Source: Candidatus Saccharimonadales bacterium (GTDB lineage Bacteria > Patescibacteriota > Saccharimonadia > Saccharimonadales > Saccharimonadaceae). Taken from it: a DNA stretch of 64,000 nucleotides. A model generated the notes under the pieces. That model saw only the letters and a list, made by a program, of their open reading frames with translations. It had not been told where the DNA came from and made no database searches. Every line of letters begins with the position of its first letter. The stretch's first letter is position 1. Positions 3,232-62,380 of this stretch are shown in pieces. The stretch covers positions 7,192 through 71,191 of the forward strand of contig JBKGVB010000033.1 of the NCBI GenBank assembly GCA_046462475.1. The letters are read 5' to 3'. Position numbers and translations under genes: made by a program.

Positions 3232-6200
3232 ATGGACTTTACGAAGCGTTTTAAGACGCTCAACGATCGGCAAAAAGAGGCGGTAACTGCGATTGATGGA
3301 CCAGTCATGGTTATCGCTGGGCCTGGTACAGGCAAGACCGAACTCCTCAGTATGCGTGCCGCCAATATTCTTCGAGAAACTGACACACTACCAAATAACC
3401 TATTATGTCTGACGTTTACTGAAAGCGGCGCGGCTGCCATGCGGGAGCGACTCGTAAGCATCATCGGCCAAGATGCCTATAAAGTAGCTATTCACACCTT
3501 CCACAGCTTTGGCAGCGATGTCATCGCTCGGTATGGTGAATATTTTTACCAAGGCGCCGATGTGCGTCCGGCCGACGAGATTAGTACGTATGAAATTCTC
3601 CGCGGCATTTTTGAAGAACTGCCACACTCCAGCCCGCTCGCAGGTCAATTTGGTGGTGACTTTACCTATCTCAGCGACACCGCAAAGACAATTTCCGAAT
3701 TAAAAAAGAGCGGACTAACCAGCGACGAGCTACTCGTTGTACTCGATGACAACGAGCGAGTACTCGATACCGCCGAGCCCGTCCTGACTGAGTTATTTGC
3801 AAACCGCATTAGCAAATCGATGCTCCCTCGGCTGTCGGCCATCGCCACCACCATTGCCGAGCTGGAACCTCGCTCACTTCCTTCTAGTATCACACCGCTT
3901 GCAAGCACACTCGCACTCAGCATCGCCCACGCTGTCGATGCGGCAATTGATCTTGAGTCAACCAAGCCTATCACCGCATGGCGCAATAAGTGGCTGGAAA
4001 AGAATGCCAAGGATGAATTTGTCTTCAAGGACCGCAAGCGCCAGGCTCGCCTCCGTGCTGTGAGTAATGTGTATTTCCAGTACCTGAGCCGTATGCAGGA
4101 GCGCCATCTTTATGACTTTGACGACATGGTCTTACGAGTACTGCACGCGACCGAAGTCTTTGACGATCTTCGTTATAGCCTCCAAGAGCAGTACCTCTAC
4201 ATCATGGTTGACGAGTTTCAAGACACAAACCTTGCACAGATGCGCCTGCTGAGCGCCCTCACCAGCAACCCTACAAATGAAGGTGCTCCGAACCTGATGG
4301 TTGTCGGCGATGACGACCAGGCGATTTACAGTTTTCAAGGTGCCGAGATCAGTAATATTCTCGATTTTTCAAGCCGTTACGAGTCAGTCAAGCGCATTAC
4401 GCTCGTCGACAACTATCGCTCAACCCCAGAAGTTCTCACGGCGGCCAGGGAAGTGATTACCCAAGGAAGCGAACGGCTCGAAAGCTATCTTACAGATCTC
4501 GACAAAACGCTCACAGCACATCTCCCGTCCGGCACTGCTGTACGCCTCATAGAAACTGCAACGCCAGACAGTGAACGAGCGTGGCTTGCAAGGCATATCA
4601 AAGAAATGATCAAAAGCGGAACATCTGCACAAGATATCGCCGTCCTCACGAGGCGTCATAACGAACTCGAGGCGCTACTGCCATACTTTACCGCTGAAGA
4701 GGTAACGGTTCAATACGAACGTCGCGATAATATTCTCGAGAACGAACTAATTATCCAGCTTTCTCTCCTGAGTCGCATCATCCATAGCCTTGCAGTTGGT
4801 CAGCATGAGGACGCAAACACTCTACTCCCAGAACTGCTCGCCCATCCAGCTTGGAACTTTTCTTCCGAAACACTATGGAAACTAAGCCTGAAAGCACACC
4901 ATGACCGCGCCTACTGGATGGAAGCGATGAGCGAAATGACCGAATTTCTGCCACTACGCACATGGCTACTCGACATGGCGCAGCAAAGTCTCGTATCGCC
5001 ACTCGAAGTCATGCTTGATCAGCTTGTCGGAAGCTCTGAGACAGACGGTACAGATGCATTTATCTCGCCATATCATGGCTACTTCTTCACTCGCGAAAAG
5101 CGCGACACAGCCTCATCATCGTATCTCGAATTCCTCGAAGCACTGAGAACCTTGCGTCATGAGCTTCGTACGTATAAAAATGGCAATGATATTAAGTTGG
5201 CTGATTTTCTTGACTTCCTCACCGTACACCAGCAGCTTGGCTCTACGATTTCAAGCGTCCGCGTATCAGGATCAGACAACGAGGTAGCCATCCATCTTAT
5301 GACGGCCCACAAATCAAAGGGATTGGAATTCGACCACATCTTTATCGTTGGTGCAGTCGATAGCAAGTGGGGCCGACAAGTCCGTAGTCGTTCACGGCTT
5401 ATTAGCTACCCTGAAAATCTACCACTTATGCCAGCAGGGGACACTTACGATGAGCGCCTGCGTCTTTTCTTCGTTGCGATGACTCGTGCGAAAAAGAGCC
5501 TCACCATTACTCACGCTAGCGCCGATGAATCTGGCTCCGCCTTGAGTCTGCCTGAGTTTTTGGTCGGCAACTCATGGACGGTAGAGACAGTCGAGGAAAG
5601 CTCGGTCGAGCAACAAGTACGCGATGCTAAAATCGCCTGGTACCAGCCTCTTATTACTCCGCTCGAACCGTCCATGAAGCAATTACTCACCTCAACCCTG
5701 GAGCGATACAAACTCAGCGCAACACATCTTTGCAACTTCCTCGACATTACTCATGGCGGACCTGAGCACTTTCTGCTTAGCAACTTACTGCGTTTCCCGG
5801 AAGCAATGAGTCCAGACGCAGTCTATGGATCGGCTATCCACGCCTGCCTGCAACAAGCACACGCGCACCTGATTACGACAGAGCACCAGCGACCAATCGA
5901 AGACAGTCTGCAAGATTTTGAGCATTTTTTGGCGCGCGGCTCACTCGATAAAGATACATTTTCACGTTACCTCGAGCGTGGCAGCAATGCTCTGACGACC
6001 TTCCTGGGTGCAAAAGGGGACAGCTTCACTACCACTCAAAGACCTGAGCTTGGATTCGCTGGACAACAATCGTATATAGATGACACTCATCTTACCGGCA
6101 CGCTTGATCTTGTCGATATCGACCACGAAGCCAAGACCATCATCGTTACCGACTATAAGACAGGGCGTCCGTCTCATTCGTGGAAGGGGAGAAGCGACGG

Positions 6201-6507
6201 CGAAAAGCTTAAACTTCACAAGTACCGCCACCAGTTGCTGTTTTATAAAGTTCTCGTCGAGAATTCACGCGACTGGTCGGCCTATACCGTAACTCACGGT
6301 CGTCTGCAATTTGTCGAGCCGGACGAGCAAGGTGACATCGTAGCACTGGAACTTGAATTTGACTCCGAAGAGGTCGCTTCAATAAAGCGCCTTATTCGTA
6401 CTGTCTGGAAGCATATCATAGCGCTCGATCTACCCGATGTCTCATCCTATAGCCCAACCTACCGCGGCGTACTCGACTTTGAGCGTGCACTCCTTGACGA
6501 AGAATAG
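3232..6507 (+). CDS. UvrD/PcrA-family superfamily-1 helicase fused to a C-terminal PD-(D/E)XK (RecB/Cas4-like) nuclease domain
   Basis: Helicase motifs: Walker A AGPGTGKT, DEFQDT, VGDDDQAIYSFQGA, TAHKSKGLEFDHIFIVG, VAMTRAK. C-terminal nuclease motifs: GTLDLVDID...VTDYKTG and YRHQLLFYK. Confidence 0.85.
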   Translation: MDFTKRFKTLNDRQKEAVTAIDGPVMVIAGPGTGKTELLSMRAANILRETDTLPNNLLCLTFTESGAAAMRERLVSIIGQDAYKVAIHTFHSFGSDVIARYGEYFYQGADVRPADEISTYEILRGIFEELPHSSPLAGQFGGDFTYLSDTAKTISELKKSGLTSDELLVVLDDNERVLDTAEPVLTELFANRISKSMLPRLSAIATTIAELEPRSLPSSITPLASTLALSIAHAVDAAIDLESTKPITAWRNKWLEKNAKDEFVFKDRKRQARLRAVSNVYFQYLSRMQERHLYDFDDMVLRVLHATEVFDDLRYSLQEQYLYIMVDEFQDTNLAQMRLLSALTSNPTNEGAPNLMVVGDDDQAIYSFQGAEISNILDFSSRYESVKRITLVDNYRSTPEVLTAAREVITQGSERLESYLTDLDKTLTAHLPSGTAVRLIETATPDSERAWLARHIKEMIKSGTSAQDIAVLTRRHNELEALLPYFTAEEVTVQYERRDNILENELIIQLSLLSRIIHSLAVGQHEDANTLLPELLAHPAWNFSSETLWKLSLKAHHDRAYWMEAMSEMTEFLPLRTWLLDMAQQSLVSPLEVMLDQLVGSSETDGTDAFISPYHGYFFTREKRDTASSSYLEFLEALRTLRHELRTYKNGNDIKLADFLDFLTVHQQLGSTISSVRVSGSDNEVAIHLMTAHKSKGLEFDHIFIVGAVDSKWGRQVRSRSRLISYPENLPLMPAGDTYDERLRLFFVAMTRAKKSLTITHASADESGSALSLPEFLVGNSWTVETVEESSVEQQVRDAKIAWYQPLITPLEPSMKQLLTSTLERYKLSATHLCNFLDITHGGPEHFLLSNLLRFPEAMSPDAVYGSAIHACLQQAHAHLITTEHQRPIEDSLQDFEHFLARGSLDKDTFSRYLERGSNALTTFLGAKGDSFTTTQRPELGFAGQQSYIDDTHLTGTLDLVDIDHEAKTIIVTDYKTGRPSHSWKGRSDGEKLKLHKYRHQLLFYKVLVENSRDWSAYTVTHGRLQFVEPDEQGDIVALELEFDSEEVASIKRLIRTVWKHIIALDLPDVSSYSPTYRGVLDFERALLDEE

Positions 6508-6522
6508 TAAATACCGTATAAT
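6494..6522 (+). promoter_or_regulatory. Sigma-70-type promoter TTGACG-17 nt-TATAAT reading into the non-coding region
   Basis: -35 at 6494-6499 and -10 at 6517-6522 with a 17-nt spacer. It overlaps the helicase stop codon (6505-6507). Confidence 0.55.
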
Positions 6523-6753
6523 CAAGTGTTAGCTAGTTGAGTGTGCGACTGCGGGAACAAGAGGACGTCTTTTTCGTGTCTCCACAGTCGCACCACTCCT
6601 AGTTCATTAAAAGACAGGAATAGTGCATATAGTCATCCGCAAGTCTCTGACTTTGCGGGTGGGGCATACCCATCCTACGGTGACGGCTCACGCAGCCGGC
6701 TGTTTTAGCGGCCCAGTAACCGGTCACCTACAATGGATGAGTCCCTGCCCAAA

Positions 6754-6863
6754 CGAGATGTAGCTCAGTCTGGAAGAGCACGCGATAGTTTCTCTCCCCG
6801 GTTAACCGAGAGAGAAGCTTCCTATATCGCGAGGCCGTGGGTTCAAATCCCATCATCTCGACC
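6754..6863 (+). tRNA. tRNA-like gene with a 34-nt hairpin insertion in the anticodon loop; anticodon not assignable
   Basis: - Acceptor stem: CGAGATG/CATCTCG.
- D arm: GCTC-AGTCTGGAA-GAGC.
- Anticodon stem: CGCGA (6781-6785) / TCGCG (6827-6831), enclosing 41 nt instead of 7.
- Variable loop: AGGCC.
- T arm: GTGGG-TTCAAAT-CCCAT.
- Discriminator A followed by CC. Confidence 0.6.
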
Positions 6864-7141
6864 GGAAACAAGTAACGGCACGTACCCGAGAAGCGGGCCC
6901 GACTCTTTGTCCCAGAGTCACTTGTTTCCAGGCCCAGTCGTGTGCAACTCTCGACCCCGCACCTCGAGAACACGACTGGGCCACCCCAGCCCGACGAGCA
7001 GAAGGTAGCCCCGGAGGGAGCCTCTTGCTCGTCATCAGCGAGACAAATTCTTTCGTCGCCGGGGAAGGCGATGGCAACAGGGGAATTTGTCTCGCCTAGG
7101 GTGCCGGCGCCGGGGATTCGACCCCTTCGGCGCCGGCACCC
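6864..7141 (+). other. Array of five abutting long perfect hairpins, starting immediately after the tRNA-like 3' end
   Basis: Outer stems, each with a nested inner stem:
- 6864-6873 / 6920-6929 (10 bp)
- 6931-6943 / 6970-6982 (13 bp)
- 6993-7000 / 7026-7033 (8 bp)
- 7038-7050 / 7083-7095 (13 bp)
- 7100-7111 / 7129-7140 (12 bp). Confidence 0.7.
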
Positions 7142-7189
7142 GCTTCTACTTCACACACGCCGACAACCTCGAGAGGGGGTGGAAGCAAT

Positions 7190-7354
7190 ATGGCAAGCAA
7201 GGAAGAAGTTCGTGCTTGGGCTCGCAAGTCTGCAAACGGAGAGAAGCTCGCAGATCACGAGCGAGCTGCAGTCAACCGGACCACTTCACAGGCCGGCAGC
7301 GAGGGCAAGAAGGTCACTCGTCTCCTGGGCGGAAGCAAGGAGAAGGACGACTGA
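7190..7354 (+). CDS. Possible 54-aa hydrophilic protein (MASKEEVRAWARKSANGEKLADHERAAV...)
   Basis: ATG preceded by GAGAGGGGGTGGA 7 nt upstream. GC-rich codons. Too short to appear in the ORF track. It may instead be part of the structured RNA. Confidence 0.35.
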   Translation: MASKEEVRAWARKSANGEKLADHERAAVNRTTSQAGSEGKKVTRLLGGSKEKDD

Positions 7355-7426
7355 CTTAGTCCACGAGACGCCTCCTCGGAGGATCAACGGGCTCATATGT
7401 ATCGTTGATGACGCACTATTCCTGTC

Positions 7427-7481
7427 CGTCTCACCAGACTCATGAATATGTTTCGTGACTCTAGTGAGGCGTTTTTATTTT
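7427..7481 (+). terminator. Rho-independent terminator candidate
   Basis: CGTCTCAC (7427-7434) pairs with GTGAGGCG (7464-7471), including one G-U pair. TTTTTATTTT follows. Confidence 0.5.
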
Positions 7482-7538
7482 GCCTAAAATATGCTATTAT
7501 AAAGACTCGATACAATCTAAAAGCAAAAGGAACGTGCC

Positions 7539-7727
7539 ATGACAGCAGAGTCACTTTCACCAATTCATGATGAATCAGAAGTAATAAAACTTCACGCTGT
7601 CGAGACAAACAAGGAGCTAGCAGCTCGAGCGGTACCGAAAGTCATCGAGTGGGGACCGAGTCACCACCGTAGCGACTACGAAACACCCGACACATCTAGC
7701 CCAGAGGGCCTTACCTATAGCGCATAG
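7539..7727 (+). CDS. Small hypothetical protein (62 aa) upstream of dus
   Basis: AGGAA lies 6 nt before the ATG and TACAAT sits at 7511-7516. The stop is 10 nt before the dus start. Confidence 0.5.
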   Translation: MTAESLSPIHDESEVIKLHAVETNKELAARAVPKVIEWGPSHHRSDYETPDTSSPEGLTYSA

Positions 7728-7736
7728 TTACGTCAC

Positions 7737-8681
7737 ATGACATCATTTTGGCGAGACCTACCACAACCTTTCTTTATTTTGGCCCCAATGGAGGCTGTAA
7801 CTGATGTTGTGTTTCGTCATGTAGTCGAAGAGGCGAGCGCCCCAGACCTTTATTTTACTGAGTTTACGAACGCCACGGGATGGGTTCATGCTGGCGATAA
7901 AGCTATTGGCGGACGCCTCGTAAAAACCGAGGACGAGACAAAGCTGGTCGCACAGCTGTGGGGTGCTGTACCCGAAGACATGGCAAAGCTTGCCACGCGC
8001 TGCCGCGAGCTCGGCTACCTTGGTGTTGACATCAACATGGGCTGCCCAGACTCTTCTGCCGTCAAAGCTGGCGGTGGCGCGGCAATGTGTCGCACCCCAG
8101 AACTTGCCGGAGAAATGATCGCAGCCGCAAAAACAAGCGGACTGCCAACCTCGGTAAAATGTCGACTCGGCTATAGTCAAGTTACTGAATGGCGCGAGTG
8201 GCTCACATTCTTATTCCAGCAGGATGTCGAAAATCTCACCATACACCTCCGCACAAAAAAAGAAATGAGCAAAGTTCCTGCCCATTTTGAATTAATCCCA
8301 GAAATTGTCGCCTTGCGCGATGAGATTGCTCCACAGACTTTACTTACCATTAACGGAGATATCGAAGACAGGGAACAGGGTCTTCGTCTGGTCAAAGAAA
8401 ATCCTGGTGTCAACGGTGTCATGATCGGCCGTGGAGTTTTCCATAATCCATTTTGCTTTGAAACCAACTCAACCACACACAGTCGAGAAGAGTTACTTAC
8501 CCTCCTCAAGCTTCAACTTGATTTATATGATCAGTATTCCAGCCACACCCGTCGACCATTCGAGACGCTGAAACGTTTTTTCAAAATCTATGTCAACAGC
8601 TTTGAGGGTGCCGCAGAACTGCGCGACAAGCTGATGCACACGAAAACTACTGACGAAGTGCGCGCACTTATTTCTGAGTAA
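7737..8681 (+). CDS. dus: tRNA-dihydrouridine synthase
   Basis: FILAPMEAVTDVVFR and GVDINMGCP motifs, with TIM-barrel Dus family length. Confidence 0.85.
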   Translation: MTSFWRDLPQPFFILAPMEAVTDVVFRHVVEEASAPDLYFTEFTNATGWVHAGDKAIGGRLVKTEDETKLVAQLWGAVPEDMAKLATRCRELGYLGVDINMGCPDSSAVKAGGGAAMCRTPELAGEMIAAAKTSGLPTSVKCRLGYSQVTEWREWLTFLFQQDVENLTIHLRTKKEMSKVPAHFELIPEIVALRDEIAPQTLLTINGDIEDREQGLRLVKENPGVNGVMIGRGVFHNPFCFETNSTTHSREELLTLLKLQLDLYDQYSSHTRRPFETLKRFFKIYVNSFEGAAELRDKLMHTKTTDEVRALISE

Positions 8682-26877: not shown

Positions 26878-27348
26878 ATGCCAAAGGCGAAGAAACCAGC
26901 CCAGCCAAAGACCGTCCTCAACCGCAGGGCTCGCTTTGATTACGCTCTAGGCGACGAGATCGTGGCTGGTCTCGCGCTTACCGGGGCCGAAGTACGCGCC
27001 GCACGCGATGGGCATGTACAGCTAAAAGGAGCTTTTGTCTCGCTGAAGGACGACGAGCTCTGGCTCAATAACGCCAGTTTTTCACTAAAGCTCAATGAAA
27101 AAGGCCAAAACGGCCGCACCGTTGATACTCGTCCGCGCAAACTTCTTGCGAACCGCAAGCAAATCGATCACTTCAAAGCCGAAAAACAAGCCGGCATGAC
27201 CATTGTTCCAACAAAATTACTTACTCAAGGACGATTCATAAAACTCGTCACTGCGCTTGGAAAAGGAAAGAAGCGCTACGACAAACGCGAGACAATTAAA
27301 CGTCGCGATCAAGAACGCGACACGAGAAAAGCGCTTAAACACTACTAA
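26878..27348 (+). CDS. smpB: SsrA-binding protein
   Basis: NRRARFDYALGDEIVAGLALTGAEV and a basic C-terminal tail. Confidence 0.9.
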   Translation: MPKAKKPAQPKTVLNRRARFDYALGDEIVAGLALTGAEVRAARDGHVQLKGAFVSLKDDELWLNNASFSLKLNEKGQNGRTVDTRPRKLLANRKQIDHFKAEKQAGMTIVPTKLLTQGRFIKLVTALGKGKKRYDKRETIKRRDQERDTRKALKHY

Positions 27349-27354
27349 AGAACG

Positions 27355-27385
27355 TACCCCTCTCCCGGAACCCGAGAGAGGGGTA
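27355..27385. terminator. 10-bp perfect hairpin between the convergent smpB and GC-rich ORF
   Basis: TACCCCTCTC (27355-27364) pairs with GAGAGGGGTA (27376-27385). The U-tracts are weak on both strands. Confidence 0.45.
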
Positions 27386-27399
27386 TATTCGTCACTACT

Positions 27400-45835: not shown

Positions 45836-45910
45836 GGTCCCTTCGTCTAGTGGTTAGGACACTGGGTTCTCATCCCAGCAACACGGGTTCGACTCCCGTA
45901 GGGATCACCA
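45836..45910 (+). tRNA. tRNA-Glu (anticodon CUC), CCA encoded
   Basis: GGTCCCTTCGTCTAGTGGTTAGGAC..., anticodon arm CTGGG-TTCTCAT-CCCAG, T arm CGGGTTCGACTCCCG, 3' end AGGGATCACCA. Confidence 0.9.
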
Positions 45911-45926
45911 CATTGAATAATAGAAA

Positions 45927-45960
45927 ATAGACTTACCTCGAACGGTAAGTCTATTTTTAT
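45927..45960. terminator. Bidirectional rho-independent terminator (tRNA-Glu and the SMR gene)
   Basis: ATAGACTTACC-tcgaac-GGTAAGTCTAT with an A-run upstream and a T-run downstream. Confidence 0.7.
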
Positions 45961-62321: not shown

Positions 62322-62335
62322 CTTTCAAGCATCAG

Positions 62336-62380
62336 GCGAAGCCCTCTCGTGCAAAGCACGAGAGGGCATTTCGCTTTTTA
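62336..62380 (+). terminator. Rho-independent terminator
   Basis: GCCCTCTCGTGC-aaa-GCACGAGAGGGC (12 bp) extended by GCGAA/TTCGC, followed by TTTTT. Confidence 0.75.

Follow-up and report, generated by a model that had tools for sequence, protein, structure and literature searches.

A hairpin array within a candidate structured RNA unit upstream of dus in Candidatus Saccharimonadales

The hairpin array and the unit that contains it

The DNA under study is a 64-kb stretch from the genome of a Candidatus Saccharimonadales bacterium, a member of the Candidate Phyla Radiation (CPR), and this whole stretch is termed the window. At positions 6864-7141 the window carries an array of five hairpins (hp1 to hp5), which is the interior part of one promoter-to-terminator unit, 6494-7481, placed between a gene encoding a UvrD-type helicase with a PD-(D/E)XK nuclease domain and dus, the gene for a dihydrouridine synthase (Dus). 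Homologues of this Dus occur in Candidatus Saccharimonadales/Saccharibacteria, and genes for an F-type ATP synthase follow dus. The array was compared with the window and with 90 related loci, which are numbered with the prefix L. We propose that the five hairpins may be cis-acting RNA stem-loops in an untranslated leader of about 560 nt, belonging to the mRNA of a small protein, and that they would stabilise or insulate this RNA. We assign this reading a probability of roughly 0.45.

An earlier note on this DNA had described five consecutive palindromes at 6864-7141, with mismatch-free outer stems, short spacers and a nested stem in each unit, abutting the 3' end of a tRNA-like element. That description is accurate. 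All five palindromes are present with perfect outer stems, the spacers from hp1 to hp5 are 1, 10, 4 and 3 nt and hp1 begins 2 nt past the discriminator base of the tRNA-like element. The minimum free energy (MFE) fold of the 278 nt consists of five independent hairpins, each with inner stems nested within it. Its energy is -156 kcal/mol compared with -104.8 ± 5.6 kcal/mol for 200 dinucleotide shuffles, none of which folds as stably (z = -9.2). The reverse strand gives a nearly equal value of -154.7 kcal/mol. Four of the nine spaced inverted repeats in the window with non-overlapping arms of at least 11 nt fall in the array, which ranks first among 911 sliding windows of 280 nt after regression on GC content (z = -4.65). 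The GC content of the five hairpins is 0.64 as against 0.49 for the window, and there is no comparable intergenic region elsewhere in the 64 kb.

The five sequences had also been described as unrelated to each other, hence neither a repeat family nor a CRISPR array. Comparison with blastn-short confirmed this, and a CRISPR or tandem-repeat array is rejected on these grounds. A search for further copies of the palindromes, made in the window and the 90 related loci, gave none; each hairpin produced only chance matches of 12 nt or less, the orthologues of hp4 and hp5 excepted.

The features of the unit are listed in Table 1. From the promoter, the terminator, the Shine-Dalgarno (SD) region and the open reading frame (ORF) we infer that the plus strand is the functional one. 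The TTGAC...TATAAT arrangement of the promoter is also seen in L001, L085, L081, L084, L086, L087 and L079, and a CACCTC...GAGGTG theme at the SD and anti-SD recurs across the family. Two small hairpins lie between the ORF and the 3' strand of the closing helix. The terminator is approximately 80% identical to those of L004, L082, L083 and L084, with the sequence at the base of its stem conserved.

Table 1. Positions of the unit's predicted components and of the genes on either side, in window coordinates.
Feature	Positions	Strand	Remarks
Helicase gene	3232-6507		Upstream flank
Sigma-70 type promoter	6494-6522	+	TTGACG-17-TATAAT, 11/12 matches; directly past the helicase stop codon
Long 5' hairpin	6531-6604	+	From MFE folds; a hairpin lies here in every family member, sequence variable
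Closing helix, 5' strand	6613-6626	+	GACAGGAATAGTGC; pairs with 7413-7426
Variable hairpin	6634-6661	+	Between the closing helix and the conserved element; sequence differs in L081, L084 and L085
Conserved 87-nt element	6663-6749	+	Four helices; common to L085, L081 and L084; compensatory and G-U pairs
tRNA-like cloverleaf	6754-6862	+	Rfam tRNA, 53 bits; stem covariation
hp1	6864-6929	+	10-bp perfect outer stem (13 nt at 92%), three nested stems; lineage-specific
hp2	6931-6982	+	13-bp perfect outer stem, 6-bp inner stem; lineage-specific
hp3	6993-7033	+	8-bp perfect outer stem (13 nt at 85%), inner stems; lineage-specific
hp4	7038-7095	+	13 bp perfect (outer stem 13-15 bp), 8-bp inner stem, conserved GGGGAA loop
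hp5	7099-7141	+	14-bp perfect stem, GGGG/CCCC inner stem; common to L085 and L001
Shine-Dalgarno region	7142-7186	+	GAGGGGGTGG; predicted pairing with an upstream anti-SD (CCTC / GCTTCTACTTC) would sequester it
54-aa small-protein ORF	7190-7354	+	Hydrophilic; MASKEEVRAWA...TTSQAGSEG...
Closing helix, 3' strand	7413-7426	+	GCACTATTCCTGTC; exact complement of GACAGGAATAGTGC
Intrinsic terminator	7427-7481	+	CGTCTCAC...GTGAGGCG then TTTTTATTTT; U-tract; zero spacer to the closing helix
62-aa ORF	7539-7727		Between the unit terminator and dus
dus	7737-8681		Downstream flank

Could the array simply be a stack of terminators, or roadblocks, that ends transcription of the tRNA-like gene? It starts right past that gene, GC-rich perfect stems lacking a U-tail terminate transcription in some high-GC bacteria and a consensus scan gives two weak terminator-like sites inside the array. 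These two sites, however, use other, weak stems. No outer stem is followed by five or more T, and the earlier remark that the stems are unlike ordinary terminators is borne out, a U-run following none of the five. The array is followed by a conserved SD and by an ORF that is under purifying selection and lacks its own promoter, the long-range helix needs a transcript that spans the array and the unit has a true U-tract terminator at its end. We regard a terminator stack as scarcely credible.

Conservation of the frame and turnover of its contents

Eighty of the related loci were fetched around homologues of Dus and a further ten came from protein look-ups and one DNA-pattern scan. At least 30 loci share a frame in which the promoter and the 5' hairpin are followed by two complementary arms, separated by 270-800 nt, and by a terminator placed directly against the 3' one. 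The helicase gene and dus adjoin the unit in every case, and the orientation and position of the unit are fixed in all relatives examined. In an alignment of 29 loci 94.8% of the cells of the 14-bp closing helix are paired, a value raised by the way in which the arms were located (see below), with slid controls giving 31-46%. Eleven of the 14 pairs have changed on both sides and none of 500 shuffles matches the observed covariation. The compensated variants include GGAA/TTCC to GAGA/TCTC, AATAGT/ACTATT to AATTGT/ACAATT and GAATAGTG to GAGTGAAG, and the helix contains a few U-G pairs.

What lies between the arms is a mosaic that differs between genomes, yet it is always extremely folded. The leaders of 21 loci, taken from the 5' arm to the SD, have z values of -4.6 to -11.4 against dinucleotide shuffles, whereas coding controls of the same length from those loci range from -2.0 to +1.1. 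The interiors are richer in GC than their flanks in 32 of 32 loci (0.58 vs 0.49, a mean gain of 8.7 points). Structure itself appears to be the conserved property of the interiors, with selection acting on the presence of stable hairpins and not on particular ones.

The coding slot of the unit is similarly varied. Homologues of the 54-residue product are P0122 and P0123, those in L086 and L087 share 62-68% identity and dN/dS values of 0.07-0.39 indicate purifying selection. In other loci different small ORFs fill this slot, and each has a strong GGAGGTGA SD with a CACC(T)C anti-SD upstream of it. The slot ORFs of L002, L004, L006, L007, L009, L049, L072 and L081-L087 are dissimilar in sequence, encode 42-84 residues and in many cases start with TTG or GTG. 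Their products are of the hydrophilic KEE...QAGSEG type, of other hydrophilic types or Cys-rich with CxxCxGxG-like (CxxC) motifs. The 54-residue protein matches no Pfam family, and nine small-ORF products of the family gave no match either. In all 22 loci with an identified ORF the orientation of the interior is identical.

These observations bear on a DNA-level explanation, in which the 14-bp inverted repeats would be recombination sites of an invertible or cassette segment and the palindromes substrates of a single-strand recombinase, or cruciforms. The repeats flank a hypervariable segment with different small ORFs in different species, the palindromes are strand-symmetric and covariation of inverted repeats is also expected of paired protein-binding sites. 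An inverton should nevertheless be seen in both orientations and be accompanied by a site-specific recombinase. Here, the 22 loci with an identified ORF all agree in orientation, the unit is not adjoined by any gene for a recombinase, integrase or RAYT, and an inverton is rejected. The position is fixed across Saccharimonadales, the long-range helix includes U-G pairs and the placement of the 3' repeat against the terminator and of the 5' repeat after the promoter is sensible for RNA.

The suggestion in the earlier note that the palindromes are DNA hairpin substrates, as at attC- or REP-like sites, fares no better. There are no dispersed copies in the window and 90 loci, no integrase or RAYT transposase among the two flanking and the scanned downstream genes, no attC-type core sites and no ORF cassettes between the hairpins, and both orientation and position are fixed in the relatives examined. 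The only ORFs in the array are overlapping ones created by the palindromes themselves, and most of them run through hp1-hp3, hairpins that are missing from L085. The array does resemble integron attC sites in being a series of imperfect to perfect palindromes of 40-70 nt. It differs in having no adjoining integrase, cassette ORFs or conserved core sites and in lying at a fixed position inside a transcription unit. A DNA-level role is in our opinion very improbable.

The individual hairpins have dissimilar histories. Only L085 and L001 share hp4 and hp5 with the window, in a comparison to which a single metagenome scan contributed just one more carrier. Homologues of hp1-hp3 are absent from the 90 loci. 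These three hairpins constitute an exact insertion/deletion of 174 nt at the junction of the tRNA-like element and hp4. The closest relative, L085, does not have them, and there hp4 comes directly after the tRNA-like 3' end. The junction is filled by two unrelated hairpins in L001, and L086 and L087 combine the same small protein and frame with entirely different hairpins. The sequences suggest that hp4 and hp5 are inherited modules and hp1-hp3 a lineage-specific addition. Inspection of the boundaries of the 174-nt segment against L085 revealed no terminal inverted repeat and no duplication. Clustered, intergenic, GC-rich palindromes are typical of REP/BIME elements and MITEs; those are dispersed multi-copy families, unlike the five hairpins, which are unique and mutually unrelated. 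A REP/BIME or MITE family is rejected, there being no dispersed copies in the window and 90 loci and no terminal inverted repeat or target-site duplication at the indel.

Among the three carriers 90% of the cells in hp4 and hp5 are paired, compared with 39-53% in slid controls, and there are three compensatory pairs. In all three the outer helix of hp5 is 100% paired, and hp5 shows one compensatory change of G-C to A-U. The outer stem of hp4 is perfect in the window only, with mismatches and G-U pairs in the other two. The differences of the window from L085 and L001 cluster in the 5' arm of hp4, and every one of them makes this arm more complementary to the 3' one. Perfect hairpins can arise by template switching, which yields clustered, complementarity-raising changes like those in the hp4 arm (PMC8794818). 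With respect to strand, MFE values and G-U counts favour each strand in 15 of 30 loci and show no asymmetry for hp4 and hp5.

The earlier proposal of a strongly selected, multi-helix RNA scaffold can be upheld in part. An RNA architecture fits the context, namely the sense strand of a promoter-to-terminator unit with covarying neighbours, and the pairing of hp4 and hp5 is kept in two other lineages. The absence of hp1-hp3 in L085 and their replacement in L001 mean that there is no single conserved scaffold.

Are the hairpins then neutral by-products, an insertion-tolerant spacer having gathered palindromes from template-switch or snap-back replication errors, with no function for any one of them? 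The absence of hp1-hp3 from the closest relative and the occurrence of different hairpins in other lineages would be explained. Perfect Watson-Crick stems without strand asymmetry are as expected of young DNA-level palindromes, the clustered changes in the hp4 5' arm carry the signature of template switching (PMC8794818) and L030 functions without leader hairpins. Other data are at odds with neutrality. All 21 leaders are extremely structured (z at most -4.6), interiors are enriched in GC in 32 of 32 loci in spite of an AT bias in these genomes, hp4 and hp5 have been kept in lineages whose Dus is only about 83% identical (the figure for L001) and no other intergenic region of the window has gathered such hairpins. 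We consider a purely neutral origin unlikely. The perfect stems were probably made and repaired by mutation of the template-switch type and kept by selection for stability.

The unit as a whole has no counterpart among catalogued RNAs. In a scan of 6300-7700 with Rfam 15 only tRNA passes, the other models scoring 17-22 bits against gathering scores of 40-90. The conserved 87-nt element has no Rfam match, and 16 related loci likewise have none other than tRNA. The known large RNAs GOLLD, ROOL, OLE, tmRNA, RNase P, 6S and SRP were rejected since none matches in Rfam even at E <= 10, and ARAGORN found no tmRNA. A bacterial Y RNA (YrlA), which would join a tRNA-like module to a Ro60-binding stem and be encoded beside rsr, likewise gave no Rfam match at this threshold, and the Pfam scan of flanking genes showed no rsr. 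The region gives no blastn match in phages or plasmids, the frame motif was not found in viral contigs and an origin in a phage, plasmid or virus is rejected. A literature search on tRNA-like elements, tRNA introns and hairpin RNAs of Saccharibacteria/CPR returned nothing relevant. The unit that contains the hairpins appears to represent a previously undescribed RNA family; the hairpins themselves are of a known type, stabilising or insulating leader stem-loops.

The tRNA-like element and related modules

The element that precedes the array matches Rfam RF00005 at 6754-6861 with 53.2 bits against a gathering score of 29 and forms a cloverleaf. It has C1-G72, A73 and intact D and T arms. The anticodon arm is aberrant; its 7-nt loop, UUCCUAU, is preceded on the 5' side by an inserted hairpin of about 32 nt, such that there is no normal anticodon loop. 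The strands of the anticodon stem are separated by 40 nt and not by a contiguous 7-nt loop on a 5-bp stem, and for this reason ARAGORN with default settings misses the element. With the intron option ARAGORN assigns tRNA-Arg(CCU) and a 32-nt insert 5' of the loop. The anticodon called varies among the orthologues, CCU in the window, GAA in L001, L081 and L084 and ATC in L004. RNAalifold, applied to the 87-nt and tRNA-like elements of the window, L085, L081 and L084, gives 60 pairs, of which 18 are compensatory, including pairs in the acceptor and T stems and in the hairpin that extends the anticodon arm.

Is the insert an intron? A group I intron is rejected because the insert is about 32 nt and the core of such introns at least 200 nt. 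An archaeal bulge-helix-bulge (BHB) intron is also rejected; a single one-sided bulge of 6-7 nt is predicted in place of two 3-nt bulges with a 4-bp helix. The lack of a BHB motif, together with the bacterial nature of the flanking genes (F-type ATP synthase, Saccharimonadales Dus homologues), excludes an archaeal origin.

Within the loop, at least 12 of 32 framed loci hold a tRNA or tRNA-like module. Canonical tRNAs are among these, such as tRNA-Pro(CGG) of L057 at the same position and tRNA-Met(CAU) of L082. Several others are good cloverleaves with anticodon loops of 6 or 8 nt, no U33 or an inserted hairpin. The C1-G72 pair and A73 are common to the window element, its orthologues and the canonical tRNA-Pro of L057, which suggests that the window element descends from a tRNA-Pro gene. 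Modules are also carried by loci upstream of dus in which the arms were not found. A canonical tRNA-Gly(GCC) is present in L019, and in L019 and L048 aberrant tRNA-like elements directly abut each other upstream of dus.

Further cloverleaves were noted at 3366-3586 in L019, 3439-3589 in L048, 3357-3430 and 3676-3749 in L005, 2548-2621 in L062 and 3346-3420 in L008. They have 6- or 8-nt loops, no U33 or A34 anticodons, and some abut each other; in L005, L008 and L062 they are enclosed by the unit's long-range arms. All resemble tRNA mimics more than tRNAs that take part in decoding.

A strong hairpin starts approximately 0-4 nt past the 3' end of the module in seven of eight loci inspected by eye. 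The loci named for this comparison are the window, L001, L004, L057, L062, L081, L084 and L085, and the exception is L082, where the gap is about 15 nt; L005, L008 and L083 lie outside the set.

The loop of hp4, GGGGAAGG at 7060-7069, is invariant in the window, L085 and L001. The exposed CUUCC of the tRNA-like pseudo-anticodon loop (6820-6826) is complementary to the GGAAG within it. The two motifs co-occur in the window, L085 and L001, with the CUUCC of L001 placed in the apical loop of the insert, and CUUCC is absent from the tRNA-like loops of L081 and L084, which are without hp4. This could be a CUUCC-GGAAG kissing contact, a suggestion drawn from motifs that display no sequence variation in the carriers.

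A proposed role for the hairpins

How might stem-loops in the leader act? Transcription would run from the near-consensus promoter to the intrinsic terminator, and pairing of the leader (6613-6626) with the 3' untranslated region (7413-7426) would create a closed loop. The helix would stack against the terminator, and the loop would hold interchangeable modules, namely the 87-nt element, the tRNA-like cloverleaf, the hairpins, the anti-SD/SD hairpin and the ORF. Recognition by RNase P and RNase Z depends on an intact acceptor/T-arm core, and these enzymes may recognise that of the tRNA-like element and excise it. If the tRNA-Pro(CGG) of L057 is functional, it must be processed out of its transcript. 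The downstream RNA of the window would then start 1-2 nt before hp1, and its 5'-terminal stem-loop would block decay that depends on the 5' end. The remaining hairpins would keep a leader of several hundred nucleotides double-stranded and compact, with less access for endonucleases and Rho, and could leave the tRNA-like element free to fold independently, and likewise the SD hairpin. A cut at the tRNA-like element would in addition nick the closed loop and could activate translation. On such a scheme the fast turnover of individual hairpins is understandable because only stability matters.

There are precedents for the separate steps. Stem-loops at the 5' end stabilise bacterial mRNAs, as in the ompA, aprE and ermC leaders, and one that leaves hardly any unpaired overhang is a classic shield from decay that starts there, and tRNA-like structures can serve as processing signals for RNase P and RNase Z, as at mascRNA/MALAT1. 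The unit is similar to E. coli ompA and B. subtilis aprE/ermC in having a strong hairpin a few nucleotides from the predicted 5' end of the downstream RNA. Those stabilisers are single hairpins at a primary 5' end, whereas the 5' end of the unit would arise by excision of the tRNA-like element and four more hairpins follow. In common with mascRNA, at the 3' end of MALAT1, and with tRNA punctuation, a cloverleaf whose acceptor, D and T arms are intact, but which has no functional anticodon loop, lies inside a longer transcript with structures on both sides. Those systems are eukaryotic or organellar; the present one is bacterial, the cloverleaf is upstream of an ORF and some relatives have a genuine tRNA in its place.

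The type I toxin mRNAs of the hok/sok kind, with their 5'-3' fold-back inhibition, provide a further comparison. They also have an ORF of about 50 codons, an SD masked by an anti-SD, a long-distance helix between the 5' leader and the 3' end of an mRNA that is compact and stable, and a plausible activation by processing. The proteins of the unit, in contrast, are hydrophilic or Cys-rich and not hydrophobic membrane toxins, and the leader is much longer and includes tRNA-like and hairpin modules. No promoter-like site for a toxin antisense RNA occurs on the minus strand inside the unit.

The unit also shares with the dual-function RNAIII of Staphylococcus aureus, which encodes delta-haemolysin, a size of about 0.5-1 kb, serial stem-loops, long-range helices that close domains and an embedded small ORF. 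It has no sequence or Rfam relation to RNAIII, and it includes a tRNA-like module, which RNAIII does not. The hairpins and C-rich loops of RNAIII are conserved and pair with target mRNAs, whereas the hairpins of the unit are not conserved and have no common loop motif. RNAIII, the hok type, the stabilisers and the tRNA-like signals are best viewed as functional analogues of the unit and not as homologues.

The likeness to RNAIII raises the question of whether the array is itself the functional product, either a trans-acting sponge or scaffold of the CsrB/RsmZ or RNAIII kind or a set of RNase III substrates yielding small RNAs. Many stable hairpins in one transcript from a near-consensus promoter, taken as highly expressed, would suit this role. 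The domain-closing helices and the small ORF recall RNAIII, and the invariant hp4 loop in three lineages is complementary to CUUCC of the tRNA-like arm in those loci. Set against these points, no loop motif is common to the hairpins or the loci, the hairpins are not kept between species, which is unexpected for specific trans targets, and no partner protein was identified. Inspection disclosed no recurrent GGA or C-rich loop, and a CsrA sponge, in which GGA loops are expected, is rejected. A trans-acting array is, in our assessment, distinctly unlikely.

A broader and more doubtful view than that of stabilising leader stem-loops is that the unit typifies a new class of large, modular RNA specific to Saccharibacteria. 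This would be a closed loop of 0.5-1 kb with tRNA mimics whose anticodon arms are disabled, rapidly exchanged hairpins and interchangeable small ORFs behind masked ribosome-binding sites, in which excision of the mimic by RNase P and RNase Z switches a stored form to a translated one. We offer this tentatively. In such an RNA the mimics and hairpins may have trans functions of their own, for instance as decoys that draw off tRNA-directed enzymes, the adjacent Dus among them, or may engage in the CUUCC-GGAAG contact in cis.

Several considerations weigh against the proposal that the hairpins are cis-acting stem-loops of a leader. The transcript, its processing and its stability are here predictions from sequence. 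The long-range arms were located by a search for complementarity, which inflates the percentage of paired cells in the closing helix, although this bias leaves unaffected the variety of compensated changes, which occupy a constant place with respect to promoter and terminator. Covariation in homologues has a mixed outcome, hp4 and hp5 keeping their pairing in L085 and L001 but without significance for three sequences (75 of 500 shuffles), and no such test is possible for hp1-hp3 because they have no homologues. Pairing in the stems is almost wholly of the Watson-Crick type and both strands fold equally well, so that the RNA strand is assigned from context only. The frame can do without either type of module. 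In L030 it occurs with an 84-residue ORF but no leader hairpins, and other members of the family, such as L086 and L087, are without a tRNA-like module.

The Saccharibacteria (TM7), a lineage of the CPR, live as ultrasmall episymbionts, and their genomes, about 1 Mb in size, tolerate little noncoding DNA. This locus spends up to about 1 kb on a transcript that has a near-consensus promoter and is mostly hairpins. The conserved frame, with its long-range helix, tRNA mimics, masked SD and diverse small proteins, represents a new candidate CPR RNA family with a testable mechanism of processing and activation. It offers a natural experiment in RNA evolution, the protein and frame being kept while hairpins are gained, lost and perfected over short times, and is a good system in which to test a template-switch origin of RNA stems. 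With their disabled anticodon arms, the tRNA-like elements extend a short list of bacterial tRNA mimics.

Some minor observations concern the region between the unit and dus. The terminator hairpin (7427-7471) is unusually conserved, with a CGTCTC...GAGACG/GAGGCG base and a TCATGAA...TTCGTGA interior. In L087 it is without a U-tract and the ATG of dus is 4 nt downstream, which suggests a possible read-through or attenuation link to dus. The 62-residue ORF that follows the terminator in the window matches no Pfam family. It has approximately 80% DNA identity in L004, L082, L083 and L084 and is absent in L086 and L087, where dus directly follows the terminator.

Other inverted repeats in the window are of a more familiar kind. 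The second most structured region, 62.1-62.5 kb, comprises coding sequence and a bidirectional terminator and has no similar array. Within it, at 62334-62377 between convergent ORFs, a perfect 12-bp hairpin with further flanking complementarity and then a T-run looks like an ordinary bidirectional terminator. An inverted repeat at 27343-27397 is an imperfect palindrome of 26 nt with 77% complementarity. A perfect 14-bp hairpin at 45924-45957 lies directly after tRNA-Glu(CUC) (45836-45910) and is probably the terminator of that tRNA.

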